Assembly (NCBI GenBank): GCA_027923505.1
Contig: BROI01000007.1
Span: 992,001 to 1,056,000 of the forward strand
Reading direction: 5' to 3'
Origin: Mayamaea pseudoterrestris
Lineage: Eukaryota
Length of the DNA: 64,000 bases
Position numbers and translations under genes: made by a program. Below the pieces are notes generated by a model. It worked only from the letters and a program-made list of their open reading frames with translations, ran no database searches and was not told the DNA's origin. The first letter of the stretch is position 1. Each line of letters starts with the position of its first letter. This document shows, piece after piece, positions 24,320 through 53,975 of the stretch.

Positions 24320-25582
24320 CTATATACTACTCTCCTCTTCTTCTCCAGCCTCTTCCTCACTGGAATTACCCTTGACGCGCCAGTATGCCGCCAGCATGGA
24401 TCCCAAGCAACTATGCGCCGTCGCCGATAGTGCCCCCGGCAGCGACGCCAGCGGCGGCGCTCCCAACGATCGCGCCAGTACCACCGCCAGCGCACTGTTC
24501 TGCATGCCCACTTCTATCGATATGGTCCGACTCGTCGTTTCGGAGCGCCCAAACACATACTTTGGCACCAAATAGCCAGCGGCAAAGCCAAGCGTATGCA
24601 GACTCGTCACGGCGAGTGCCACTCGCTTGGTCACGGCGGCGCCGCCAGACGCACCTGACAGCAACAGCGGCACCGTTTCCGCTACCACGCCTCCACATAT
24701 CAAACTCACCAAGATGACACTCAAGAACGGCGTCCATCGCGCCATGTAACGACTGAGTCGTGGCGCCAGCTGGTTGAGCAGCATGCCAATTACCACTGGC
24801 ACTAGCACGACGCGCGCCGTCGTTTGCATCAACGTGGCGCCGCTAACGACTATGCTACTTCCAACGAGCAGCTTGACCAAGGTTGGTGTCGCGACCACGG
24901 CCAGCAGCGTCGAGCAGGCCGTCAGCACGACGGAGAGGGCAACATTGGCCTTGGCAATCAGACTCACCAAGTTGCTGGCCGTGCCTCCCGGCGAACATCC
25001 CACCAGCAGGAGTCCCAGATAGAGTGCTTGGCCCGTGGCAGCGTTGACGTGACGCAGCAGCAGCGTACGTCCCACGATGAGCGCCGCCAGCGGCATGACG
25101 ACAAACTGGCAAACGACTCCAAGTGGAACACTCACAACATTGTCTCTGCTCAAGACGCTATAAAAGTCGCTTCGCGTCAGCGTGAGACCAGTGCCAACCA
25201 TGACGGTGGCCAGCATGGCGTCTATGTAGTTATCGCGATTGACCCACTGCAACGCGGACGGTTGCGCCAGTGCCAACGCTGCGGACCCCAACACAAAGAG
25301 TGGAAAGGCGCTCGTTAGTTTGGATAGTAGCGCGTCGAGTGAAGAAAATGTTGGCGGAGATTCAGAGGAATCATCTAAAGATTGTCGCAGACTTGTGGGT
25401 TTGGCTCGCGGAAACAATGGTAAACTTGAAAGGATCTTGTTGTCATGCTGGTGCTGAGGTGCGATGCATGATGATGGCATACGGCCGACGGAATGGAAAG
25501 GCCAAGATGCATGCCTGAATCCATTGCATGTCCATGCTATAACAAGTACCAGCCATGATTTGGATTTATAGTGTCGATTCAT
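24320..25582 (-). CDS. Sodium/bile-acid symporter (SBF/BASS) family transporter
   Basis: GVVCQFVVMP, VGCSPGGTASN, RTISIEVGMQNSALA motifs. Long N-terminal targeting-like extension; start at 25582 or 25630. Confidence 0.9.
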   Translation of the reverse strand: MNRHYKSKSWLVLVIAWTCNGFRHASWPFHSVGRMPSSCIAPQHQHDNKILSSLPLFPRAKPTSLRQSLDDSSESPPTFSSLDALLSKLTSAFPLFVLGSAALALAQPSALQWVNRDNYIDAMLATVMVGTGLTLTRSDFYSVLSRDNVVSVPLGVVCQFVVMPLAALIVGRTLLLRHVNAATGQALYLGLLLVGCSPGGTASNLVSLIAKANVALSVVLTACSTLLAVVATPTLVKLLVGSSIVVSGATLMQTTARVVLVPVVIGMLLNQLAPRLSRYMARWTPFLSVILVSLICGGVVAETVPLLLSGASGGAAVTKRVALAVTSLHTLGFAAGYLVPKYVFGRSETTSRTISIEVGMQNSALAVVLARSLGAPPLASLPGALSATAHSCLGSMLAAYWRVKGNSSEEEAGEEEESSI

Positions 25583-25904
25583 TTTGCGCTGCGTTCTAGA
25601 GTCTGGCCATGCGATGCAGCAGACGGCCATGGTCACAAGACGTCAAGTTCGTTTGGCGATGGATCGCGCGAAGACAAACCGAATCCGAAATTCCGGATTC
25701 CTAGTTAGCTATGGAACGAACCGAATACAATATTGCACCGAGGGACCGGGGTCTGACCTGGCTGCATGGCAGATCCAATGTAACTAGCGCTGCACCTGGA
25801 ATGTTAGCGCTAACTCTCAGTTGAACAAAGAATAAGTGCATCTGTGGCAATAGCACAGATGGGAACTCAATGAATGGGGGATGCTGAAACATGAACACAT
25901 AATT

Positions 25905-27460
25905 ATATGTGCTTGAAACAAACTGGGAGCCACAGATGGTGATTACCTTGGTGCTGCACTGCGAACGAGACTGGGTCTTGCACAAGGCAACTCACTGGAT
26001 TTGTCGCTTATATCACTCCATGGCATACTTGATGGCATGCTGCTGGGATAAGTGCTGGAAGGCAAACTGGGAGCCACAGAGGGTGATAAGCTTGGTGCAA
26101 CACTGGGAAGGAGACTAGTCCTGCGCCAAGTTGTGACCTGGCTTGTCGCTTGAATCACTTCTTGATGGCAAACTTGATGGTAAGCTGCCAGGATGAGTGC
26201 TGGGAGACAAACTGGGAGCCACAGAAGGGGACAAGCTTGGTACTGCACTGGGAAGGAGACTACTAGGTCCTGCGCTAGGTGAGGTAGTGGGTTTGGTGCT
26301 TGGTGTTGCACTGGGAAGAAGAGTGGGTCCTACGCTAGATGTCTCACTGGGCTTGGCACTTGGTCACTTGATGGCATACTGCAGGGATGAGTGCTGGGAG
26401 ACCAATCGGGAGCCACAGAGGGGGGCAGCTTGGTGCTGCTCTGGGAAGAAGAGTGTGTCCTGCGCTCGCAGCAGAGTGCTGGGAGACAAACTGGGAGCCA
26501 CAGAAGGGGACAAGCTTGGTACTGCACTAGGAAGGATAATACTAGGCCCTGCGCTAGGTGAGGCATTGGGCTTGGCGCTTGGTGTTGCACTGGGAAGATG
26601 AGTGGGTCCTATGCTAGATGTCTCACTGGGCTTGGCACTTGGTGACTTGATGGCACACTTGATGGCATACTGCAGGGATGAGTGCTGGGAGACCAATCGG
26701 GAGCCACAGAGGGGGGCAGCTTGGTGCTGCTCTGGGAAGAAGAGTGTGTCCTGCGCTAGTGCACTGGGTTTTGTGCTTGGGTCACAAACTTGATGGAATG
26801 CTGCTGGGATGAGTGCTGAGAGACAAACTGGGAGCCACAGAGAGTGACAAGCTTGGTGCTGCACGGGAAGGAGACTGGGACTTGTGCAAGGCAACTCATT
26901 GCACTTGTCGCTTGAATATGTCAAGCAGCTGGAGTGAGTGCTTGGAAACAAGTTAAGAGTAACTGGGAGAGGACATGCTTGCAGCGCTAGGTGACACACT
27001 GGGTTTGGCGCTTGGGTCACTTGATGGCATGCTGCTGAGATGAGTGCTGGGAGACATAAAGGAGTTTGCAGGGTGAAACATTGGTGCTGTACTGGGAAGG
27101 AGACTGGGTTTGCGCAAGGCAACTCACTAGACTTGTTGCTTGAATCACTTGAATCACTTGATGGCAAGCAGCTGGGGTGAGTGGTTGGAGACAAACTTGG
27201 AGCCAAAGAGGGTAAGGAGCTTGGTACTGCACTGGGACATTTGATGGCACGCTGTTGGGGTGAGTGCTGGGAGACAACTGAGAGCCACAGAGTGACAAGC
27301 CTGGCGCTGCACTGGGAAGGAGATTGGGCTTTGCGTTTGATGACACAATGGGCTTGGTGATGGAATGACTTGATGACACACTTGATGAAAAGCTGCTTGG
27401 TTGAGTGCTGGGAGACAGGACATACAGGGAACCACAGAGGATGACAAGCTTGGTGACAAG
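25905..27460 (-). repeat. Degenerate tandem repeat array encoding frameshifted Pro/Ser-rich (PSxxPSxx) peptides, probable pseudogene; includes a ~280-bp near-identical duplication (26195-26466 / 26474-26757)
   Basis: Recurrent units gagtgctgggagacaaactgggagccacag, aagcttggtgctgcactgggaag, cacttgatggca. Minus-strand ORF pieces PSVAPSLSPS and PSSMPSS occur in different frames. Confidence 0.8.
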
Positions 27461-28486
27461 AAGTTGTAACATACTTGATGCATTATGAAGAAGGCACAAC
27501 TAAAAGGGCATGCCCTTGAGCTGCCTCATTCAGCGTTTTATGTGCTTACAAGGCTAATTGTTTGTGCTTACTTGCAAGAATGCCTAAACATGCCTGCAAG
27601 TCCATGCCCAGTGAAAGTGTAGCTCTGGTCATGCTACAATACCAATAGATGCTCGTGTGGGTCTGCTTTGTGCGCAAGTAGCGCTAAGACACGACCGTTA
27701 AAGAGTCGCTGCACGTCTGGGGGCAACGGATATGAGCACGGGTGATTTCTACAGCGTGAGTACTGAAAACGTGTTCCGCGCGCCGGCAATTTCACTTTGC
27801 GCCAAGGGAAGGGACCGTTCTGACTCTGATCGAGTCAGACCGAACTACCTTGTACCGGGTAGCATATTCCGGTAGGAGCAAGGACAGCGACAAGCAATGC
27901 GCAAGGCTCAAGCAATAGATCTCTACGGTCCGTGGAGCTGATGCTCCACCGGTATGCTCCAAGGATACAGGCGTGATCTCTTTTGGGTCAACGTCCACGA
28001 CTATATGCGCAGGCTCATTGCGATGCTGCCTTTGCTGGCATAACTCCTCTTTCAGCATGATTGCTCCGTGATAAACGCAGTATTGGTCAAACGCGAACGT
28101 GTCGCGTGAAAAGGTATAGCTTTCATGTCGAACCATCTCACACATTTTTAGTCGTTTTGGTCGTCAAAGCTTGGAGGACGCTTTTTACCCAATGCATGGT
28201 GACTCATGAAAATAATCTCCTGTTTGCATTATCGTTCATTATAGTGACTGTGATGATCCTTCGATTCCAGCGAGCCATCCAGCAGAACGTTAGACTGTCG
28301 TGATTTTGAAAAAGGATGCAACATGACCGCGGCGCTGCAACTACCCGGCGAAGGAGGTAGTCACAGACGGAGAACCGTCATTATACTTTCGCTTGCTTCG
28401 ACGACGGAATGACACTACAGTAGACTATTATATATATCACGTCCAAGTGTAAATACAAATATAGATTATCCTTTCATTACATACTT

Positions 28487-29838
28487 TCAAGCTTGCGGTG
28501 GTGGCGGAGGCGATTCACGACGCAAACGCTTGGCGTCACTAGGTCCCCCATCGTGAACTGTTTCAGAACTGATATCATCAGCAGGCACATCCTCCGACTC
28601 ACCAACTCGATCCGCAAGAAGCGCAGCCGGATGCTGCTGAGCAGCGCCATCGTCAGCAATGTCCCGGTTGGCAACATTTGGATACACGCGAGCGTTAGTT
28701 GCTGCCGCCAACCAATGACCTTCACCGTCGTCGGAAGGATGCACAGCCTTTCCCCCCATTTCCGCTTGTAACATACCGCCACCATCGGCTTCAAAAAGAT
28801 TCATATATTCAGTTCCGCCAATAAAATTACCGGTAAAACTGCTGCCGACAGTGAATGAACCAACTGTCCCACTACCTATAGACGGTGCTTGTCCGGTCAT
28901 CAAATCAGGGGCATTGCCTTGATTGTTGCCATGGCGCCCTTCCGATGACTCATCAGTCAATGCACTGGCACTCCAAGTAACACCTTCAGGCGGTGCAGCA
29001 GGTATCGTCGCTTTTACAATAGGTGGATTGGCTGGATTCACATCCAACCAGAAATCGAGTGGAAATTCATTCCCGTCGGTAGACGCAAGCTCAATCACTT
29101 GATCTAAAAAAGTCGTCAAACCTTCGCGCGAGGCGTTGTTGTTAGAGGGCAGTCGGCTAGTCATCACGGCCATTGTGGCATCTCTGATGTTTCCAGAACT
29201 TGCTCCCAAGTAGTTGTAGACAGCGAAGATAAAAAGTTTAGTGTTGTCTCGACTTGAGGCCTTCTTGAGTGTGTCAAGGTAAAGGGAAATGGCATCTGTA
29301 GAAATGGGCGCGGGAGATATTCCGGCAATGTACAGTACCTTTGTAAGAAACCAAAGTAAAACACTTTTCCACCTAACCTCGAAATGCTCAATCAATTAAG
29401 CTCCATGGCCAGTCCTCTGTGACTATCATCCTCTCTTAGACTTACTCTTGGTAATCGAGGACATCTTGATAGTTGGGAAGAAATGAACGAACGAACGAAC
29501 GAACAAGCAAGCGAGCGAGAGAATCAAAATTGTGAGGAATTCTGGAACGATTGCAAGCGGCAAGCAGAACCGATGTCCGAATGGAAATGACTGACATAAG
29601 ACATTACTATCGCATGCGCTTCGCTTCCACGAACAGCTGTCAGTATCGCGTGAGAAGTACGAACCGTGTTGGACGCTTTAATCGTCACGGCCCCGCAAAA
29701 GGAGAAGCTGGTGCTGCATGACACGGCGTCGGAGTTTTTTGCATCCTTATCTTCTTTTTCCGGTGTCGATACAGCTGATGGTGTATCATATTGATCGTCG
29801 CATGTCCAGGGATGTGGAGTTGTAGCAGTGTAGCTCAT
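28487..29838 (-). CDS. Uncharacterised orphan protein, paralog A, exons 29838-29665, 29464-29446, 29295-28487
   Basis: Splicing gives ...AVTIKASNT|MSSITKN|AISLYLDTLKKASS...REGLTTFLDQVIELASTDGN. Exon structure matches paralog B. Confidence 0.65.
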
Positions 29839-30139
29839 GAGTGCTCACGTGCTTCAGATCGTGGTAGTGTGTTGTTTCTCGTCGAATTTGACGGAAGGTT
29901 TGTGATGACGATCTCGATTTTCTCGGTGGAGATGTAGTGTCGGACTGGTGCTCACGTTCGAGCGAGCTCGCGAGCTATAATACCACTGACTTATGATATA
30001 GAGTACCGCCATAGCAAGATCATGCATGAAATATAAGTAAAAGCAGATCTAACCTAGAAGCAGCATGTTTATAACAGATTTTATTCCAGCATTTACTTAG
30101 TGCCATCACATGCAGCAGCAACTGCACCAGAAATATCAG

Positions 30140-30918
30140 CTACGTATCCTGACGGCAGCGTTTAGAGCCCGCCATGCCGGTAGGCAAAGAGGAGGAACCA
30201 GCATCATCTGTTGCAGTGGCAACATCAGGCGCTGTCACTTGAATTGGTGCTGGATTCGCATCCAACCAGAATTCGATTGGATATGCATTCCCGTCGGTAG
30301 ACGCTAGCTCAATCACTTGATCTAAAAAAATTGTCAAACCTTCACGCAAGGTGTTGGCGTCAGTGGGAAGTCGGCGAGTGATAGATGACATAACTTCATG
30401 CCGGTATTCAGGACTTTCTCCCAAGTAAATGTGGACAGCGCAGATAAAAAGTTTAGTGTTGACTTGACTTGAGGCATACTTTAGTGTGTCAAGGTAGAGG
30501 GAAATGGCATCTGTAGAAAAGGGCGCGGGAGGATTCGGTGTAAGTACACGATTTTTGTTCCACGTCAAATACTTGGCAACATTTCATTTCTTTTTTTGAA
30601 CTTACTTTTGGTAATTGAGGTGGCCTGCCTTGACGGAGTAAAAGAAACGAACGAAACATTGAGCGATGAGAGTGGATCTGTTAAGTGTCATGTCCAAGCC
30701 AATATATGTATAGTCGCGCATGTCATGTTGCAAGTAGACACTACCATACGCACTGTATTTGATGCTTTTAACGTCACAGCCGTGCTAAAGGAGAGCTTGG
30801 TGGTGCAAGATGCAGCGTCGTCGTCACAATCGCCTTCCTTTGAGATCAATGCAACAGCAGAAGAGTTACTACACTGAGTGTCCACCCGCAATGGTAGTGG
30901 GCTCGTCGTATCGCTCAT
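30140..30918 (-). CDS. Uncharacterised orphan protein, paralog B, exons 30918-30754, 30624-30606, 30510-30140
   Basis: ...AVTLKASNT|ATSITKN|AISLYLDTLKYASS...REGLTIFLDQVIELASTDGN. Intron phases and the 19-nt exon match paralog A. Confidence 0.65.
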
Positions 30919-31092
30919 TATCTCTCGCTTGTACAAGTCGGCATCGTGGAGTCTCATCGATGAGTTTTTGACGCAATGCGGTCTCGTCGCCGCCGCGTTT
31001 CAGCGATCAAATCAATCTGTCGGACCGGTTATTAATCTTTAGTTTTCACGATTGTCGTTCGTCGCATTCATCACACAACATGTCCAAACGCC

Positions 31093-33426
31093 ATGAGGCG
31101 ACGATCCCCGCAAGCCGCATCTGAACCATCAATGAGTCGAGCAACAACAAGCTTTCCTGTAGCAGATGAATCCGAAAGCATGGAAGGTTCAGAAGTCAGA
31201 GAGCAGCAGGGCTTGCTGTTGGAAATTGATGACGGTGGCGACTTTGACGATGACGACGAGGAGCCAAAAAAGGGTTTCGGAGGAAGAAATCGGCTTCTAG
31301 TGAACGATCCAATCTACTCCTATCAAGGTAGAAGGCGGTTCATCGCGCTATCCATGATACTGGGTGTTGTTTTGGTCGTTTATTTGGGTAAGTCTCATGA
31401 CGAGAAATAGCCATTGGAAAGTGCTTGTCGCATCGTTGTCGCTGCGACACCTTTCGCCTGCGTCCAGATCACTTCGCCATTGTCGTCCACCTCCGCACGC
31501 GAACGGCTACATTATTTCTTCGTAACTGGATAAGAAAGAGTCGAACCAAGACAGGCAAACGTGTGTCGGTGCAAAGCAAAGAGAGGAAGGAATGGCCTAC
31601 GGTCGACCGGCAAGACCATCGTTTTACAGCCCCACGAACCGAGCGACTGGATTGAACGGTAGCGCATCTGGCAGCATTCGAACCAAAGTCATTCTTCTCT
31701 TGGTTGTTACTTCCATGTATACTACCTTTCTTTATCGCAGTGGTGTGTTTAATCGAAGAGTTGGCTTGAAAAAGACGAGTTATTCCAAACCTCTAATGTC
31801 TCGAATGTTCGTTACGAGACTCTCGCTAACACTACATCAATCATCTTCATGTTCATTACAGGCGGAGCCAGCTCCTTCTTCACAACCTCGCGTGGTAGTC
31901 GAGCCAATTTGTTGTCGATTGCAACTTGGAACATTGCCGCCATTAACAATAACCCATTTGAATACTGGATCACCTACAAGGAGAACCCTGCCTATGAACA
32001 GCTCATGGTTGACATTGAGCGCTTTATTGAAATGGATCCATCTGACGATAAGAATTTGAAAGTGGATCAAGTGTTTACCAATGACATGATGCAGGCTTTG
32101 GACAAGCGACTGACCAAGGTGGGCTGGGCGTCGGTTCAAAACTACTGGGACAATGATTTTTCGAAGCGGCGCATCATTACCGAGTTTCTAAAGGATCCAT
32201 TGCTGGGAAGCAAGCGCCTTGCTAGCATGCCGGATCGAATCACAAACACCATCAACTTGGCCAGTGGCGAGCAAGTCTTTCGACCGACTGTCATTAACAT
32301 GTACGAGGGTGACTTGGGCACGCTTGACAAGTGGTGGAAGGAGTGGGAAGCTTTTATGTTTGACAAGCCGCTTGAAATTGAAGGCAAGTCGGGAAAGGAA
32401 AAGTTGATTCCATATCAAATGCTTCAGCCCATATCCAAGGCGAAATATCCTGATATCGAGGAGCAGGAGGAGAAGGATTCACTGCCACTCCAAACCTTGT
32501 GTGGCGCCATTTTTGACGCCATTCTCGTGCACATGATGAACACTGTTTCGAAACCAAATGTCTGGCAGCCGCTCAAGCAAACCATGGTGGAGAATCTGAA
32601 CAAGAAGAAGGTTCCGCACACGCTTGAGATATTGGAGAAGCAATACATGGATTCTGATATCATTGCCTTGCAGGAAGTGTCACAGTCGTTCATTGAGCAA
32701 GCTCGTCGGACAGTGATTGGAAAACGCTTTCATGTGCTCGCTCCGGCTGACTTGGATTCGACGCGGGACCAAAATAGCGTTGTTTGCTTGAACAAGCAAA
32801 CGTTTCCGGTTGGCATGATGCAGGAAATCACTCCCAGCGTCGCTGCAGCCTTTCCACAAGGCGTAAAGGTGCCAGTTGCGCCAGGCGACATTTTTGCGTT
32901 GGAAACGAAACATGCGGACGGCTCAAGCTACATTGTTGCATCCTTTCATGGCGATACGAATGGCTTGGCTACCAAACCAGTCGTTGAAGCCATTTTGCAG
33001 GCCATGAAGAACAATGGCATGAATGATCACAAGCTAATTTTTGGCATGGATGCGAACACGTACGAACATGCGACACCGGGAAAGCAGCAGGATGTTTTGG
33101 AGTTTGGCGAATCGTACGTTTCGCTCGGCTTGACGTCGTGTTGGGGTGACAAACCCCAGCCATCCAACTACACGACGTACAATGCCCGCACGTTTCTGCA
33201 GCCGCAGCTCAACAAGGCGTGCCGGCAGGAAGAAAAGCGCGAAAAAGGTGACGTTAACCCCAAAGATTTTATATTGTTTAAGAAGAATGACTTTACCGTC
33301 GTGGAAACGTTAAAGGACAATACGGGAAAGAAGCAGTATATTGAAGACATGGCGTTCCCGACACTAAACTTTCCCAGTGATCATGGTATCCTTTCGACCA
33401 CTTTGGAACAGAAAGTTGCGGAATAA
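31093..33426 (+). CDS. Endonuclease/exonuclease/phosphatase (EEP) fold protein with N-terminal membrane anchor; exon 31093-31387 (or 31592-31778) spliced to 31862-33426
   Basis: IATWNIAA, DIIALQEV, IFGMDAN, KDFILF, FPSDHG EEP motifs. Phase-1 splice at tacag|GC (31862). Confidence 0.78.
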
Positions 33427-33495
33427 AGTTTTAAACGTTGTGATACGTCGGCATTGTACAAATAAGGAATGTTACACGCCTTCAGAAATAGCAGC

Positions 33496-35127
33496 TCACC
33501 TTTTCGTCGCTTCTTCTTGTTGTTGCCGGCAAGTGTCTCGTAAAATTGGTAGATGCACCGTCAAAAGTCCCAAGCTTTCGGCCAGTTTGCTATTGTCTGC
33601 ATCTCCTGCTTCCTCTTGCTGCTCCATGACTCGTGCATGGATGGGTTGCACCATTTGAATATGATTGTTCAAGCAAACTCGCATTTCATTGATGGATATA
33701 TCGACCGGTAAACCTCGCAGCAAGCAGGCATCGCCAGCTTCATCGTCCGTTAGCATGTTCAACAAGGTAGCACCACCACCATTATCTTCCTGCTCCACTT
33801 CATGCAGCTCATGAATCAGCATGGCGTCGTCTCGCACAATGCTAAAGGCGGCGCGACGAATTTGTCGCTTCAGCAACGATTTCATGGTACACTTTACGAC
33901 CAGCGAGGCAAACGTGGGAGGTAGTCGCTGATGAATGCCAATGGCCAGTGCAAGCTGCTCCAAGTGTTCGCGCGACAGACCGTCCAGTGACGACAAAGCG
34001 CCAGGTGCACGGAGACGCGGCTCAGTGTGACGCACGACGGCGTGTGAATCTTGCGGCGCGTCCTTGCGAGACGAGTCGCTGAAGGCGTCCCAGAGCGGCA
34101 TGAGATTTAGCAGGGGCCCTGCCGCGTCTTGTCCAGAGACCTCCATTAGTGCAATACCTGCTGCTGCAGAACTCGTTGTCGTTGCCACCGCGTCTGTTGC
34201 TTCCGCAGCAGCAGCGTCATCATGATTCGTCATTTTCTGCAACACTAGTTTTGCTACACGCTGGTACACCAATTGCCGCTGCTGCAGCTCTAGATTACGA
34301 TACAGTTTCACTTCATAATCGTTCCAAAAGTGCCGCGACAAGACTTGGCGGGGCGCCATAAAGCTCAAAAACATTGGCAAGTATCCAACAATGGGCAGCA
34401 GCCACACCAAGACGAGCGGCGACACAATGGACAAGTCTTGCTGGAGGCGTCGCTGCTGCTCGAGCTGGCGGCGGGGAATGCGGCCTGGTGGTGGTGGTTG
34501 CGTGGAGTCTTTGGTGAGCGAGGAGAGCAAGCTGGCGTCACTGGCGTTCAAACTCAGCAGCATAATATCAACTGCTGCTGTATCTGCTGCTGCATTATCA
34601 TCGGCACCATTCGCTATACCATTTACCTCATTCTTGACTCGCTTTCGTCTCAGCGGATGGTCGATGGTCCAGGCGTTCATCTTGGTGTAGCTAGCGTCGC
34701 GAATGCTGCGACACAGTACCCACTCCTTGTAGAGCTGCTGGACGGCCACGGGGAAGCGCTTGGCACGTTCGATGACCGTCATTGGTCGCGCGGCGTCATG
34801 GCAAATGTTTACAATGGTGGAAGCAGCAGTGGTAGTTTGTGACAATGTAGGTGCAGGTGGTACCGATAGAGATTCGTCAGCTGTGCTGCTGCTGCTGCTG
34901 CTTTCAGTCACACCGCTCTCACCAAGATTCTTATTACTAGGTTCCGTCTTGATCGACAGCATGCGACTCGACGACATTGCCGCCAGACGAACAACGTTCG
35001 ATTGATTGAGCGCGTAATGCTGGGGCAAATGGACGCGCTGCAAGCCGCGGCTCGTCAGCCGCGTCGTGGTGCTCAGCACGACAATGCAGCAGCCGACGGA
35101 TCGGCGGTTCAGTGAAACGATGGACAT
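33496..35127 (-). CDS. LETM1-like (LETMD1-type) mitochondrial protein
   Basis: RRQLEQQRRLQQDL...LPIVGYL.....APRQVLSRHFW, LDGLSREHLEQLA, RDDAMLIHE, ACLLRGL. Presequence-like N-terminus. Confidence 0.75.
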   Translation of the reverse strand: MSIVSLNRRSVGCCIVVLSTTTRLTSRGLQRVHLPQHYALNQSNVVRLAAMSSSRMLSIKTEPSNKNLGESGVTESSSSSSTADESLSVPPAPTLSQTTTAASTIVNICHDAARPMTVIERAKRFPVAVQQLYKEWVLCRSIRDASYTKMNAWTIDHPLRRKRVKNEVNGIANGADDNAAADTAAVDIMLLSLNASDASLLSSLTKDSTQPPPPGRIPRRQLEQQRRLQQDLSIVSPLVLVWLLPIVGYLPMFLSFMAPRQVLSRHFWNDYEVKLYRNLELQQRQLVYQRVAKLVLQKMTNHDDAAAAEATDAVATTTSSAAAGIALMEVSGQDAAGPLLNLMPLWDAFSDSSRKDAPQDSHAVVRHTEPRLRAPGALSSLDGLSREHLEQLALAIGIHQRLPPTFASLVVKCTMKSLLKRQIRRAAFSIVRDDAMLIHELHEVEQEDNGGGATLLNMLTDDEAGDACLLRGLPVDISINEMRVCLNNHIQMVQPIHARVMEQQEEAGDADNSKLAESLGLLTVHLPILRDTCRQQQEEATKR

Positions 35128-47668: not shown

Positions 47669-50600
47669 TTACGCAGGCAAACATTTCTCTGACGTCAAAA
47701 AGCAACATCCTAGAATCTTTTGGCAGCGCGATGGTTCATCCACTGCCGCGTCTCGCAACATTTCCAGCGCGTCGTAAACGAGAGGATGGAGCGGAAGCCG
47801 ACAAGCTTCCTCGGCCAATGTTTGCAATTCCGATCGCTTCTCATCGAAGCAAAACATGACCGCTCCTGATACGAGCAAAAGACTATGAAGTTGCGGCATG
47901 ACCCTGCGATCCGAACTGACATCAAATATTTCACTCGCAGCATGACGACAACCTAAAAGCTTCAGGATGGATAAACATCGGCGCAACAGTCGCTGTGCCA
48001 ACTCTTGTTCCTCCTGTGTTACAGCAAAGTTTTCCGCCAGCAGCTTGCGGAGCATTAGTTGAATGGGCAAAGCCATCTCAATGTAGTCATTAGGCACCTC
48101 CTCCTCAAAAATCTTGCGATCAGAGTTACTGTTGAGTAGACTACCTGGTGACGTAGTGCCAACAATCTTAAACTCATCGATAAACTCTGTCATCGCTGGC
48201 TCTAAAGTATCAGTGTACGCTAACGTAATCGCCAGGACACTTTCAAAGGAAGTACAAACATCAAGTTCTGATCGCAAAATATAATCAGATGTAGGTTCAA
48301 GTTTCATCAGCTGCAGCGCCGGCTTGTTTAGAAGAGACAAGGCGGCAGCCTGTCGTACATCAGCGTCATTATCCTGCAAAAGCATCATAGCTGGAATAGT
48401 AAAAGCTCGTCGTACTGACAACGTCGTCTCAGAGAACGCGGCAGTTTCGTTCAATAGCTTACTCCCTGACAATGCCACAGCTGCAGAGTGTCGAAGCCTC
48501 CACGGCTTGTAAGGGTCGCTGAGGCGGCTCACGAGGTTTTTAAAGACATTCAACGCTTCCGCAGGTTGTGCTTTCCAGCGGATCACAAAGGACATGAGCT
48601 CGGCTGCATTTCCGTCAATGGCCGTAAAGTCTTGCTGTCCTTGCTCGTCCCCCATGCCAGCGCTTACCCCAATCATTCGTAAAGCTAATTGCCATAACTC
48701 GCTCGGCTCATTGGACTCCGAAAACGCGGCATTATCATGACGTACTCGCGCATTCAGGCATTCAATCAGACAGCGAGATAAGCGACGAACGTTGGGATTG
48801 TGTGATCTAGCGTCAAGCTCCCCGGCAAGCGTCGTGAAAAGAATCGACTGCAGCACATCAAAGCGCTCGTTATATTCTGTATCAGCAGCAAGCCATCCGT
48901 CGACACCTTCATAAATTGATTTTTTTAATGTTTTGATGGCAGCAACTCGAACATCGAACGATGGCGAGGAGAGAAGCGTTAACAACCTTGCTTCTAGGAT
49001 TCGGTCGACTGTATCAATCGTCCAAAACAAAGAAAGGAGATTCGCGCATATTCCGGCGCCGACGATAGAACCGAGCTCTGCGGCGCCAATGTCGTTACTA
49101 CACTCTTTTTCGAGCCACTCAATCGTAGCTATGCCATAATGCTGGTATTCGTTGCCAGCATTTGTTATTTGAAGTATCCTGAATGCACTTGACATTACCA
49201 GAGCAGGTGCACAAGGGCGCCCTCCGACAATCCGTAACCCCTTCTCAATTATTAGGTCCAGCATTAGATATGTTCCAAACGATTCTCTTAACTCGTGCTG
49301 AGTCTGAAGTAGTTCGAAAATCAAGCAAAAAGTGCCATGAATTTGGTTGAAACATACATTGGGCGAAATTAGCACTGTTCGGCACCACTGCAACAAGGCT
49401 AATGGGGAGGCGACGGATGCTTGCTCACCGCAAGAGAGATTCGCTAGCGCGCGTGCAGCTCCTTTCCGCATGGTGATGTGCTTATGCCTGGTTGATTCGA
49501 GCAATGGATATATAAGGTTTTCAGTTTGTATCGTTGCGTCAGTGCCAGACATTCGTGTTGGTTGCACTCGTGAAAGAAACACCATGAGAGGGAACACAGG
49601 AGGCATGCTACTCCAATTATTACGAGCCAAGCTCACGTCATGAGAATGAATAAAAACGGATCGAAAGAAGTCGGACAGCATCGGGTAAGCTTTGTACAAA
49701 TCGGCTATATTAGCAGCTCTGCTGCTCTGAGCTCATAAACATAATTTTTTTTGTGAGGAAGGTGTAGTAGTGCTTTCATCATTGCGCCATACGTCAAGCT
49801 TACCGTATTGTCGACACTGGCCGCATTTTTATCCGGATCGACAGCCCGCAGCATTGCTGCAGAAAACACCATCGTCGCAGAGTTGCGAGTGGCCCAGTCC
49901 GGATCCATGTACCCTAATACTGAAGAGACCAATGCCTTGCCAGCAATAGGCACCGAGACGCTTGACAAGGGACTATCGAGAAGAATCATCCGTACGATGT
50001 TTAAGGAGTGAATTCTTCTCAGGATGCCGCCTTGTGTAGTCAGAGAATCGCCCTCGGTTTGCATATCAATAACATCGTGAGGTAAGTGAAGGCAGTCTAG
50101 AAGCTGTGTCATTTTGGTAGGTGAAGGCAGGGACATGCTCAGCAATCTGTTTAAAACCGTTTCACACAGGGGAACCGAGTTATGTCTGGAGGATACCTCG
50201 GACCGCATCAACGAAAGAAACCCCAATGCGTACCCCGTACTTCGACGGAGTGTCGAATTCCGTGATTTGCTCGTGTCGGATATTTCATGCAACAGATTTA
50301 TCATCCATTTGCGTGGCAGCTTTTTCAACTCCTCGTCGTCCGAAGCTAGGCATGAGACCGCGAGTTGCTGAAGGGCTTTGTGAGCCGCATATGCAGCTCC
50401 TGTGTGTTTCACAGAAACTTGCGTCTCCAATAACAAAATTCCTGCGTCGTCGACGGAAGATACAGCTGCTCGAGCAGTAGTCGAGCACAAGCAATAAACA
50501 AAAGCTTCGCAAGCATCTTTGATGAGTAAACATGATCCGACGACAAGCCTTTGTGAAGCCATTTGATTACTTCGTTCGGCTAAGGTGACTCGTTTCAAAG

Positions 50601-53600
50601 AACCAGTGATGCCGTTGGCTCCAAGCGCACCCGGGTTAACGATTGCGTTCTGCGTTCGAGCAACATTGCCGAATTTCGAGTCCTCAGTATCGCCGATAAC
50701 ACTTAAAGATAAGCGGAGAGCTTCTCGAAGTAAATCAGCTATCTCAGCTGTAAATACTTCCGGATTAGCATAGAATGATAGATTTAATTCTACTAAAACC
50801 AGTCGCATGCCTCTAATCAGCCCATGAGCGAGTGGAAGTCCGTTTTCCGAAAGCCATCTTTCGTCGGTGAGTATTGTATCAAAAGCTTGGGCCATAAGCT
50901 TTAGACGTTCACGAACCAATGAAAACAATCGCTCTAAAACAGTGATCTTGGCGCTATCTGATGGGCACAGCAAGCAAACTAGTTGCAAAAGGCGTGCACC
51001 GGTATCGCATTCGTGCTGCCTTGGCGATGATGCCAAGTACACGGCGTGGTTCTCTATCATCACAAGGTCCAAGACAGAGCGCGGTAGTTCAATTGACTGT
51101 GGAATTGCCATATGGACTAAGCGTTCAAGCAATTCAGACGCCTTCAACCTTGTGTCATCCCAAGCGCTGCTCAACAACGACACAATCATGCAAAACACAT
51201 TTGCCGATAGAACATGAGTCGTGATCATGAATAGAGTAACTTCTTCTGAAAGGCTTCTTGCTCTATTAAACCATGTTCCGCTCTTACATAAGTTTCTGTT
51301 TGACTTGTCAGAGCTTAATTTGCGCGACGAAAAGTCGAGTATGCATTCCAGTATCGCTAATGCGAATGTTGCTTTGCTTGACGGGCTTCCCGGATATCCC
51401 GTCTTCTTACAAAGAATATCATTGATAAGAAAATCATTCACAAACTGCGACAAACGAGGTTGGAATGCCCCGTTTGAGAAGCCTTCGGCCTCAATTGCCG
51501 ATAATCGATCCATGAAATTGAGGAGACACAGACAAAGACTCGATAGGTACTGACGATCCACATCTTTCGCAGCAAACGCAAGTGACTCTTCCCAAAATTT
51601 GGCTTCTAGCAAAATTCGAGAAAGTGGATTGTCGGATGGCTTGTGACAAGCAATGACAGTTGATAAAGCACAAAAGGCGGAAGATCGAACCATGATGGAG
51701 GCATGGACCAAGCCAAGCGACAAGCTGTCAAGCGATACACACGACGTGATTGTTTCTCTGAGAGAATTCATGGCGCCATCGTTCCCCGATGCTTGCGATA
51801 AAAGACCGAGATTGCCGACAATCATAACAGTTTCCAGGCTCGCCCACAGAATTCGATCACTAATCGTGTCTCGTTCGACAAGCGGCAACTTGATCCGTCC
51901 GTCTAATCGTAACGAGTCGATTTGGAGCAACAAGCATTGTAGCACCTTTGCGGCCATTGCCCTATTCTCGTCGACAATCGTCCATATTCGAGCAAGACAG
52001 AAGGACGCAATTTGACTGCGGCGATTGGCTTCCATTGTGACAAGCGCGTGCGCCAGGCTGGGAACCCATAGACCCAACCAAGCGTTTCTTATTAGCGACG
52101 CCTTTGCCGAAGAATCGCCGCGCTCCGGCTCTACGTTCAGCTTTCGTCGCTCCTTTCGATTCATTGGCTTGCGAGCCGTTTGCATGCCTGCCGCCAGTAG
52201 TTGCTCATGCAGCAACGTTTGCAGTAGCTTGGCCCACAAGTCGGCAATAGCAACTGTATTGTGCCCAAAGTCAGCAATGCCCAGTAAAAACTCTGTAATT
52301 AATTGAGGCCCCGCCGCATCCAACAAGAATTGCGCCCCGGTCTCTGGCAACAAGGTTTCCAGTGCCAAGTAGCGACCTTTGCGATGCGGCGGTTGCTTCA
52401 AAATCTGATGCACCAGTGTTTGCAGTTGCGTTGGTTCCAACTGCTTGCGCATGATGCGAACAATGGTTTGAAACAAGCACGGCAGCGAGTGTGCCAGTCG
52501 CCGATCCGGATTCTCCCAAGCGTGTAGCACAATGTGGAGCGTTTCGTTTGTCAAGGATTGGAGTAGTTGATTGTCTTGTGCATCATCATCATGATCCATG
52601 TGACTCAGTAGCGTTTGAATGCCCTTGAGCGCCGCGAGGCGCACGTGCGGATCCGGCGAATCCATGGCAGGTCGTTTGAACGCGGCCAAGAATACTTGCA
52701 GAAACGTGTCTTGGTCGTGACACTCCGTCAAGAGCAATTCACTGCTGACAGCCGCCAATACTCCCTGCAGCAAACAAACTTGCTGCATACTTGTCAATGT
52801 CGACAAGAAATCCGCCGAAAGTACTTTTTGCAGATTGTCTCTATTCCACTCACACGCTCTGCCGTAGGCGACCACCACGACGCGCAAATGCTCCACCTGG
52901 AGCTGGCAGGAGGTGACGGCGCGGAGAAAAAAGTCGCGTAGTTGCTCTAGATTATCGTCGTCATAAGGAATTGGCGACACTAGTTTGAAAACGGCGGCAA
53001 TCTGCGAAATGCGATCCAGATTGGCAAGCATGCGCGTGCTGCTGCTTGACAAGAAGGAGTCATTTGCTGCATCTTCTTCATGCATCACTTTCAAGTCAAT
53101 CTGTTGCGCATGTCTCCATAGGAGAGACACTGCCGTCGACGCCGAAATTCTTGTCGCGAGCAGCGGATACGCCATGCAATGCTGCAGCGTCGTCAGCGGG
53201 TCCTTCCAGTATGTAAAGGCAGCGTCGTAATCAATGATGGTGGAAGTAACGTCGTTCGTTAAATCCAACGACCAAACACATGGATCAAGTGCATCGATAT
53301 CAACATCAGTATGACGTTTAGTATCAATGGCATTCACCACCGACTGCAACGATCTTCGCAGCGACGTTGGTGTCTTGACGCTCAGTGACAATTCCAGCAG
53401 AATGCGACAGCATGGTGCGGCGTCGTTGTCGTCGTTTTCTTGATCATTTAAGTCTCGTTGCTGTCTGGATTGAATTAACGTGTTTTTGAACTTTTGCAAA
53501 ACATGCATTTGATCATCTATGCAATTCGCATGCATGAGTGAATGCAAAAGGCGGTCCCATGCATTTGTGACGTCTTGCTCCTTCTCCGACATTGAGCTTG

Positions 53601-53757
53601 CATGGGCATGTTTCCGCAGCAGTTTCACGGCGTCGCGCGACGAAACGTTTGATGCCGATGCAGCGTCGTCGCCGTCATTAAATATTCTACATAGCGGCCC
53701 ATCATGAGGTACACGAATGGCTTTATTGTCTTTGACAACGGCCCCATGTCGACCCAT
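47669..53757 (-). CDS. THADA: THADA/Trm732 (DUF2428) armadillo-repeat protein, exons 53757-49804, 49726-47669
   Basis: KGRYLAL, KHTGA, LRRSTG, RIHSLNIVR, W.TRNSATMVFSA, VFPLMVFLSRV. Intron 49803-49727 joins the two ORFs in frame. Confidence 0.85.
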
Positions 53758-53975
53758 GGTATGTACATATGCATTGGCGAGTGAAACGAGGACATCATGG
53801 TCGATTGGTCGATGGATCGAGGGTGATTGTTGAGTGGTGGACGGTTTATGTCTTTTCAGTCGCGCTTACTATGAAAGGGGCCAATCAGACGGCTCGCTCG
53901 ATGACACGTGAACCAATCCTCGCCAACAAACAAAAAAGTCATGCTGCCATCAGATCGGATCAAGCGAACATTATA

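Follow-up and report, generated by a model that had tools for sequence, protein, structure and literature searches.

In the reading that we favour with moderate confidence, positions 28487 to 30918 of the stretch analysed here hold two tandem copies of an orphan three-exon gene, gene A and gene B, of which gene B is spliced; the copies would go back to an old duplication, would carry a gene-conversion tract and would encode a putative nuclear adaptor. The block that the two proteins share looks conserved, most probably because a tract of ~290 bp was homogenised by gene conversion, and the case is a clear one of a seemingly conserved orphan domain that is better explained in this way. What we describe is more likely an ordinary lineage-specific gene pair with a conversion tract than a proven new domain. 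As it stands it matters little, since species-specific genes are common in diatoms and an annotation of gene B that includes the micro-exon already exists. The whole stretch, called the window below, comprises 64,000 nucleotides (contig C7, positions 992001-1056000) of the 30.6-Mb, 41-contig assembly G000 of Mayamaea pseudoterrestris and is gene-dense, with ordinary eukaryotic genes.

Gene models and the 19-nt micro-exon

The initial annotation of the window, made from its letters, had proposed that four apparently separate open reading frames resolve into two genes of the same architecture. This is confirmed: both three-exon models are open, with no internal stop in either gene, all introns are of the GT-AG type, and the intron phases are 0 and then 1. 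On the minus strand, gene A (exons 30918-30754, 30624-30606 and 30510-30140) encodes a product of 184 aa and gene B (29838-29665, 29464-29446 and 29295-28487) a product of 333 aa. The protein motifs quoted earlier and the basic motifs at the C-termini are both present in the translated models. The stretch is covered by four runs from a single study, none of which is recorded as RNA; we read two of them, X3 and X4, as RNA-derived on account of GT..AG joints in a neighbouring gene, and an X1 contig continues through the introns (29231-30512). The parts of the two genes, with their basis in brackets, are:

30754..30918, minus strand: gene A exon 1, 55 codons, the last ~20 in common with gene B (gene model; X4 record 28)
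30625..30753, minus strand: gene A intron 1, GT..CAG (gene model)
30606..30624, minus strand: gene A micro-exon, 19 nt, phase 0 to 1 (model; inclusion by depth arithmetic only)
30511..30605, minus strand: gene A intron 2, GTAAGT..CAG, its 3' end equal to gene B at 20/22 aligned sites (alignment)
30140..30510, minus strand: gene A exon 3, with the shared block, a short tail and the stop (gene model)
29665..29838, minus strand: gene B exon 1, 58 codons, to the first donor (model; X3 record 19 ends at 29665)
29635..29664, minus strand: in-frame 30-nt extension of gene B exon 1 to the second donor, +10 aa (X4 record 27; GKY94944.1)
29446..29464, minus strand: gene B micro-exon, 19 nt, whose ATG is the start of the 275-aa isoform GKY94945.1 (model, contigs, GenBank)
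29296..29445, minus strand: gene B intron 2, GTAAGT..CAG (spanned by X3 contigs and X4 record 27)
28487..29295, minus strand: gene B exon 3, with the shared block and a ~180-aa acidic, low-order tail (model, contigs)

Micro-exons measure 3-27 nt, and the internal exon seen here fits this size, is followed by a strong GTAAGT donor and is present in spliced contigs. Its 19 nt are, however, not divisible by three, so that it is required by the frame, unlike a micro-exon that serves as an optional in-frame switch. Skipping it shifts the frame in both copies and leads into 6 stops in gene A and 12 in gene B; both frames need the micro-exon. In intron 1 of gene A, tandem acceptors (AAG and CAG) lie 4 nt apart at 30625-30629, and only the downstream one is in frame; the upstream AG, with an exon start at 30628, breaks the frame, and gene B uses an AAG acceptor.

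The similarity between the genes sets in ~20 codons before the end of exon 1. The shared block of ~85 aa described initially does exist, but the true common part is thus longer, ~115 aa, and begins at the end of exon 1. In the DNA alignment the two coding sequences are separated by indels of 9, 3 and 6 nt and both frames stay open, which bears out the earlier view that splice signals and frames were kept despite divergence; the part that is not supported is the conservation of the block as a domain, as its dN/dS and silent sites indicate below.

Transcripts and existing annotation

Gene B is a transcribed and spliced protein-coding gene, the translation of which is predicted. In three X3 contigs, position 29446 is followed immediately by the opening 10-11 letters of exon 3, which shows the junction 29446/29295, and X3 record 17 aligns with 29295-28545 from its letter 20, leaving 19 extra letters ahead of exon 3. 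X4 record 27 covers 29795-29635, continues with 19 letters and then covers 29295-28941. Its bin depth of 1.17 agrees with the 1.172 expected with the micro-exon (0.79 without it), and we therefore place the 19 letters on the gene B micro-exon, which also shows that the second donor at 29635 is used. X3 record 18 retains at least part of intron 1, and X3 record 19 stops exactly at 29665, from which we infer use of the first donor. Intron 1 of gene B is thus handled variably, with donor 29635 and retention seen and donor 29665 probable.

For gene A, X4 record 28 (depth 2) aligns with 30927-30753 and then departs from the genome at the predicted donor. The depth of its remaining 96 letters, 0.77, lies close to the 0.80 expected for micro-exon plus exon 3 (0.65 without the micro-exon), a fit that consists of depth arithmetic only. 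Gene A is not covered in X3, and in both X3 and X4 the pieces listed end 50-60 nt short of the gene B stop; we do not count such gaps as evidence. The proposal that both genes are expressed and spliced therefore holds well for gene B, where the micro-exon is spliced in two RNA-like runs, and weakly for gene A, with one contig of depth 2. Among the predicted junctions, 29446/29295 is seen directly and 29665/29464 indirectly, and those of gene A come from that one contig and the depth arithmetic.

Gene B is already annotated as MPSEU_000459300, a hypothetical protein of Mayamaea pseudoterrestris. Of its two GenBank isoforms, one uses donor 29635 (343 aa, GKY94944.1) and the other starts at the ATG of the micro-exon (275 aa, GKY94945.1); micro-exon and exon 3 are identical to those of our model, and the records do not include the 333-aa form that uses donor 29665. 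Neither this form nor the gene A protein was found in the protein collection searched. The practical value of the analysis lies in a probable missing gene model, gene A, and a probable missing isoform of gene B. According to PMC9724779 the gene models of this species are RNA-seq-based and were made with funannotate. The locus number of gene B was not found in two supplementary files of that article, and literature searches on diatom micro-exons, on diatom orphan tandem duplicates and on the locus prefix returned nothing on this gene.

Search for relatives

The tandem pair is an orphan, without a detectable relative outside this diatom. A profile built from the two copies gave one match, gene B itself, among 1,835,955,588 protein representatives, and word-indexed protein searches led to 1 confirmed candidate out of 83 and to 0 out of 13. 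Of the pattern stretches found in metagenome, viral and prokaryote contigs, none was confirmed (0/482, 0/131 and 0/152, respectively). No relative of the pair occurs in the 82 loci that were fetched (456 kb including the window, MBD-gene regions among them), nor in the 80 of 289 loci of the neighbouring gene that were kept. The reach of this homolog search is that of a two-sequence profile in libraries where related diatoms are thinly sampled. Within G000, searches by protein, DNA and micro-exon pattern, all of them loose first looks that distant relatives would escape, returned these two copies only, so that the further copies for which a search had been suggested did not turn up. Two pattern matches to the micro-exon with 2 mismatches (C27 and C37) have no GT donor and no similarity and were rejected.

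Comparison with known families was equally negative. Neither exons 1 and 3 of the two genes nor the annotated isoforms match a Pfam family, PHROGs gave E values of 0.16 or worse, NCBIfam gave no match, and Rfam gave none in 25000-33500. We rejected DPC2 (E = 0.11, 13 bits where the cut-off is 70); a search for the DPC2 family in G000, run without a positive control, found nothing. Also rejected were CFA/I fimbrial subunit fusions, found in the PDB by sequence, since their whole-sequence E of 1e-6 is a sum over repeats with per-stretch values of 0.1-1. In the ESM Atlas the recognition scores of 1736 and 1916 are under the 2300 mark and provide leads only; the top clusters are nameless, the named ones are mostly HEAT-like, and all have 148 shared features or fewer. 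The suggestions of a lineage-specific family and of a protein without a recognised domain are both supported by these searches.

In Phaeodactylum tricornutum, 3170 of 12,233 gene models, about a quarter, are given as species-specific, and intron retention is called prominent in the same work (bioRxiv 10.1101/176024). The pair resembles such species-specific genes of diatoms in that it is expressed and that the libraries searched contain no relative from beyond the species. It differs from them in being a tandem duplicate with its exon structure kept, which makes a test of selection possible.

Selection and probable gene conversion

A dN/dS near 1 had been named beforehand as speaking against the proposed family, and such a value was found in the shared block. 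For codons 62-150 of exon 3 (87 codons), maximum likelihood gives 0.76 (p = 0.46 vs 1) and a counting method 0.86, with a 95% interval of 0.45-1.77. For codons 34-61, which comprise the end of exon 1 and the micro-exon (28 codons), dN/dS is 0.28 (p = 0.013), and for codons 1-150 it is 0.60 (p = 0.031); dN/dS was left out for the 5' portion of exon 1, where sites are saturated. Signs of purifying selection are confined to the end of exon 1 and the micro-exon, and the constraint on the protein is modest.

The silent sites are unevenly distributed, with 7/57 synonymous differences in the core of exon 3 against 11/23 in exons 1-2 (p = 0.002). When synonymous and intron sites are pooled, the best segment is 30536-30251, in which 71/79 sites are identical compared to 107/204 elsewhere, the intron alignments of this baseline being near background identity. 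Under three penalty settings, 0/5000 permutations reach the score of the segment, and the strictest setting gives p = 0.017; an earlier window scan statistic had given p = 0.28. The segment and its counterpart are:

30251..30536, minus strand: probable gene-conversion tract of gene A, which begins in the last part of intron 2 and extends over the block (silent sites)
29033..29321, minus strand: probable counterpart of the tract in gene B (repeats D10 and D11, 87-88%; silent sites)

In the block, silent and intron sites are as alike as coding sites, and this indicates gene conversion. The silent sites of exon 1 and of the introns are about half diverged, which strongly suggests that the duplication was not recent; the silent-site pattern suggests equally strongly that the ~290-bp tract was homogenised by conversion later on, although for two sequences and no outgroup conversion and constraint at the DNA level are indistinguishable. 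Concerted evolution of tandem paralogs by gene conversion is a known pattern, with which the pair shares a contiguous run of high silent identity across an intron-exon border between diverged flanks. It departs from the pattern in that it consists of two sequences with no outgroup and in that the tract is interrupted by a diverged patch (codons 93-113), in which 7/21 residues are identical.

Allelic differences were counted in two X1 contigs, all of whose differences were listed (40 of 173 table rows). In exon 1 of gene A, 4/5 are synonymous and 1 is non-synonymous, and in exon 3 of gene B 8/8 are non-synonymous (7 codons). At 29218, the X1 allele of gene B (Tyr to His) carries the residue of gene A; at this single site a trace of conversion and shared ancestry are both possible. 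The codon scores of the pair (-0.016 and -0.021) and its GC3 (0.46 and 0.45) are lower than those of all 14 neighbouring genes compared. Taken over both genes, the allele data are mixed; those of gene B exon 3, together with the codon-usage results, also fit a gene under little constraint.

Could the shared block nevertheless be a real, selected, lineage-private folded domain, possibly alpha/beta, of two functional paralogs whose likeness reflects constraint? We regard this as unlikely. Indels that keep the frame and the low dN/dS at the end of exon 1 and in the micro-exon are what such a domain would predict, and the amphipathic patterns match in both copies, with order-promoting residues enriched in the block (35-42% vs 8-33% outside). 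In the block itself, on the other hand, dN/dS is 0.76 and does not differ detectably from 1, silent and intron sites are equally alike, and both gene B allele changes located there are non-synonymous; moreover, predicted models reach a pLDDT of 35-40 and the family has no third member. Should the block turn out to be a new fold under selection, in a nuclear protein that arose within the lineage, the pair would illustrate on a small, testable scale how a family originates in diatoms.

We consider it improbable that the pair is young or decaying, under little constraint, of de novo origin or decayed from an ancestor past recognition, transcribed but with proteins that do little, its frames and splice sites owing their survival mainly to conversion and recent age. 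Against such a history, the frames are still open over 184 and 333 codons, with three indels that preserve them and both splice pairs intact, in spite of silent sites that have diverged by about half outside the tract, and codons 34-61 show significant purifying selection. It would account for the exclusively non-synonymous alleles of gene B, for the lowest codon scores and GC3 among the neighbours, for the several ways in which intron 1 of gene B is handled, and for the start of gene A ~180 bp from a divergent conserved gene, in a slot that another gene occupies in a different genome.

Protein features and fold searches

Neither protein has a hydrophobic segment of membrane length (best 19-residue means of 0.83 and 1.01), and both are acidic, with a pI of 4.5-4.6. 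The consensus of the classical monopartite nuclear localization signal (NLS) is K(K/R)X(K/R), and each protein contains a single match to it, within the last 7 residues in gene A and the last 14 in gene B:

30152..30163, minus strand: sole K[KR]x[KR] of gene A, NLS-like, residue 178 of 184 (consensus scan)
28520..28531, minus strand: sole K[KR]x[KR] of gene B, NLS-like, residue 320 of 333 (consensus scan)

Among the long ORFs of the window, 1/28 has this motif in the last 20 residues. The tails of A and B are unalignable (p = 0.09), and tails plus flanks are not above chance (p 0.05-0.84), so that the two NLS-like motifs may be unrelated. Set beside known monopartite signals, the pair offers one C-terminal match per protein in a disordered context, known from sequence only.

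Tentatively, we propose that the product is a soluble, non-secreted and non-catalytic nuclear adaptor or co-regulator. The N-terminal module of ~115 aa may be the part that binds a partner, it would be followed by an acidic disordered tail and by a C-terminal monopartite NLS for import by importin-alpha, and gene A would be the shorter, tail-poor version. A more far-reaching form of this proposal, to which we give little credence, holds that the gene arose in this lineage next to a bidirectional promoter, with two introns and its obligatory micro-exon already present, and that its product contains a nuclear interaction domain of a new alpha/beta type. Conversion would then keep the interaction surface of the copies compatible while the acidic tails diverge, long and activator-like in B, short and competitor-like in A, and the choice made at intron 1 of B would add, lengthen or remove the selected N-terminal part of the domain.

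The hydrophobic periodicity of the proteins is strand-like at the end of exon 1, in both copies, and at residues ~140-150, and helix-like at ~55-72 and 115-132. AlphaFold2 gave one mixed alpha/beta model (pLDDT 34.9) and one all-helical model (pLDDT 40.1), and the two disagree. The helical domain of the initial annotation is thus unproven, the more so as the part encoded by exon 1 shows a strand-like periodicity. With these low-confidence models as queries, Foldseek found nothing at E 0.001, and VIA gave best Z scores of 6.2 (r.m.s.d. 4.2, 106 aligned) and 5.9, with none at 8 or above; as far as such models go, the structure searches neither place nor exclude any fold. A homodimer prediction scored 0.00, the fold of the chain being itself uncertain.

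Two known folds were considered, a beta-grasp (ubiquitin-like, PB1 or Ras-association) and an H4-like histone fold, both by eye from what we take to be their consensus patterns. For the beta-grasp, hhalign returned a probability of 0.3 against 25 ubiquitin-like and 0.1 against 3 PB1 domains, within the shuffled null, compared to 88 for a PB1-ubiquitin control (the query profile consisting of two sequences); no Ras-association sequences were found in G000, and the Pfam scan was without match. For histone H4, the two-segment match has p = 0.05-0.11 and is reached by 6.5% of 294 real windows, hhalign gives a probability of 1, and BLASTP produced no alignment. We rejected both candidates. A very diverged member of either fold is most unlikely, even though the order of strand-like and helix-like segments partly fits a beta-grasp and a pair of short H4-like motifs is correctly ordered. 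Neither a fold nor a function is established.

Genomic setting

The pair sits head to head with a conserved gene. Some 180 bp (30927-31111) lie between the 5' contig ends of gene A and of this divergent neighbour, and they possibly form a bidirectional promoter. The neighbour has a conserved coding exon of 521 aa (31111-33426, plus strand) without Pfam match and with 289 relatives in metagenome contigs, which show 46-72% identity among the 80 that were kept; two alternative upstream donors are spliced to 31861. When this gene is used as bait, the orphan is encoded in none of the 80 loci kept, of which 5 also have the convergent LETM1-like gene downstream. The syntenic loci are only distantly related, with 64-68% identity in the neighbour protein, and their upstream sides are rearranged, other genes occupying the head-to-head slot in L018 and L069. 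Of these loci, L018 has the longest flank upstream, and its slot holds a 740-aa gene with no relationship to gene B (best E 1.6). Synteny is thus broken at the position of the pair.

The 740-aa gene of L018 shows a weak match to a TFIIB-type zinc ribbon in its N-terminal part and has a counterpart on contig C32 of G000. The two genes, of 735-740 aa (L018, 4250-6472, and L096, C32:164644-165816), may encode an RRN7/TAF1B-like factor.

On the other side of the pair lies a dispersed element, probably a member of a non-autonomous Helitron/Helentron-like family:

25732-27846: dispersed element of 2.1 kb with Helitron-like ends, 640 bp downstream of the pair

The element contains internal tandem repeats of 131-279 bp, which read as broken Pro/Ser-rich frames, and has 165 matches with shared ends in G000. 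It was apparently inserted between A and T without target duplication and has a hairpin just inside its 3' end. That the pair is transposon cargo or a domesticated fragment, as the proximity of this element and the synteny break might suggest, is highly improbable, because the pair lies outside the 3' end of the element, its DNA matches only itself in G000, its CpG observed/expected ratio is 0.99 vs 0.34 in the element, and neither similarity in 82 loci nor a transposon Pfam family was found. Recent Helitron cargo was rejected on the same grounds, the pair being outside the element, confined to a single locus and not CpG-depleted.

Two further observations were made in passing. Elsewhere in G000 (L111-L128, C36:151664-155185) an open frame of 1599 aa contains at least 16 tandem, diverged ubiquitin-like domains. 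In the window, 47669-53865 holds a THADA/Trm732-like gene as two overlapping frames (49705-53865 and 47669-49732), which may reflect an intron or a frameshift.
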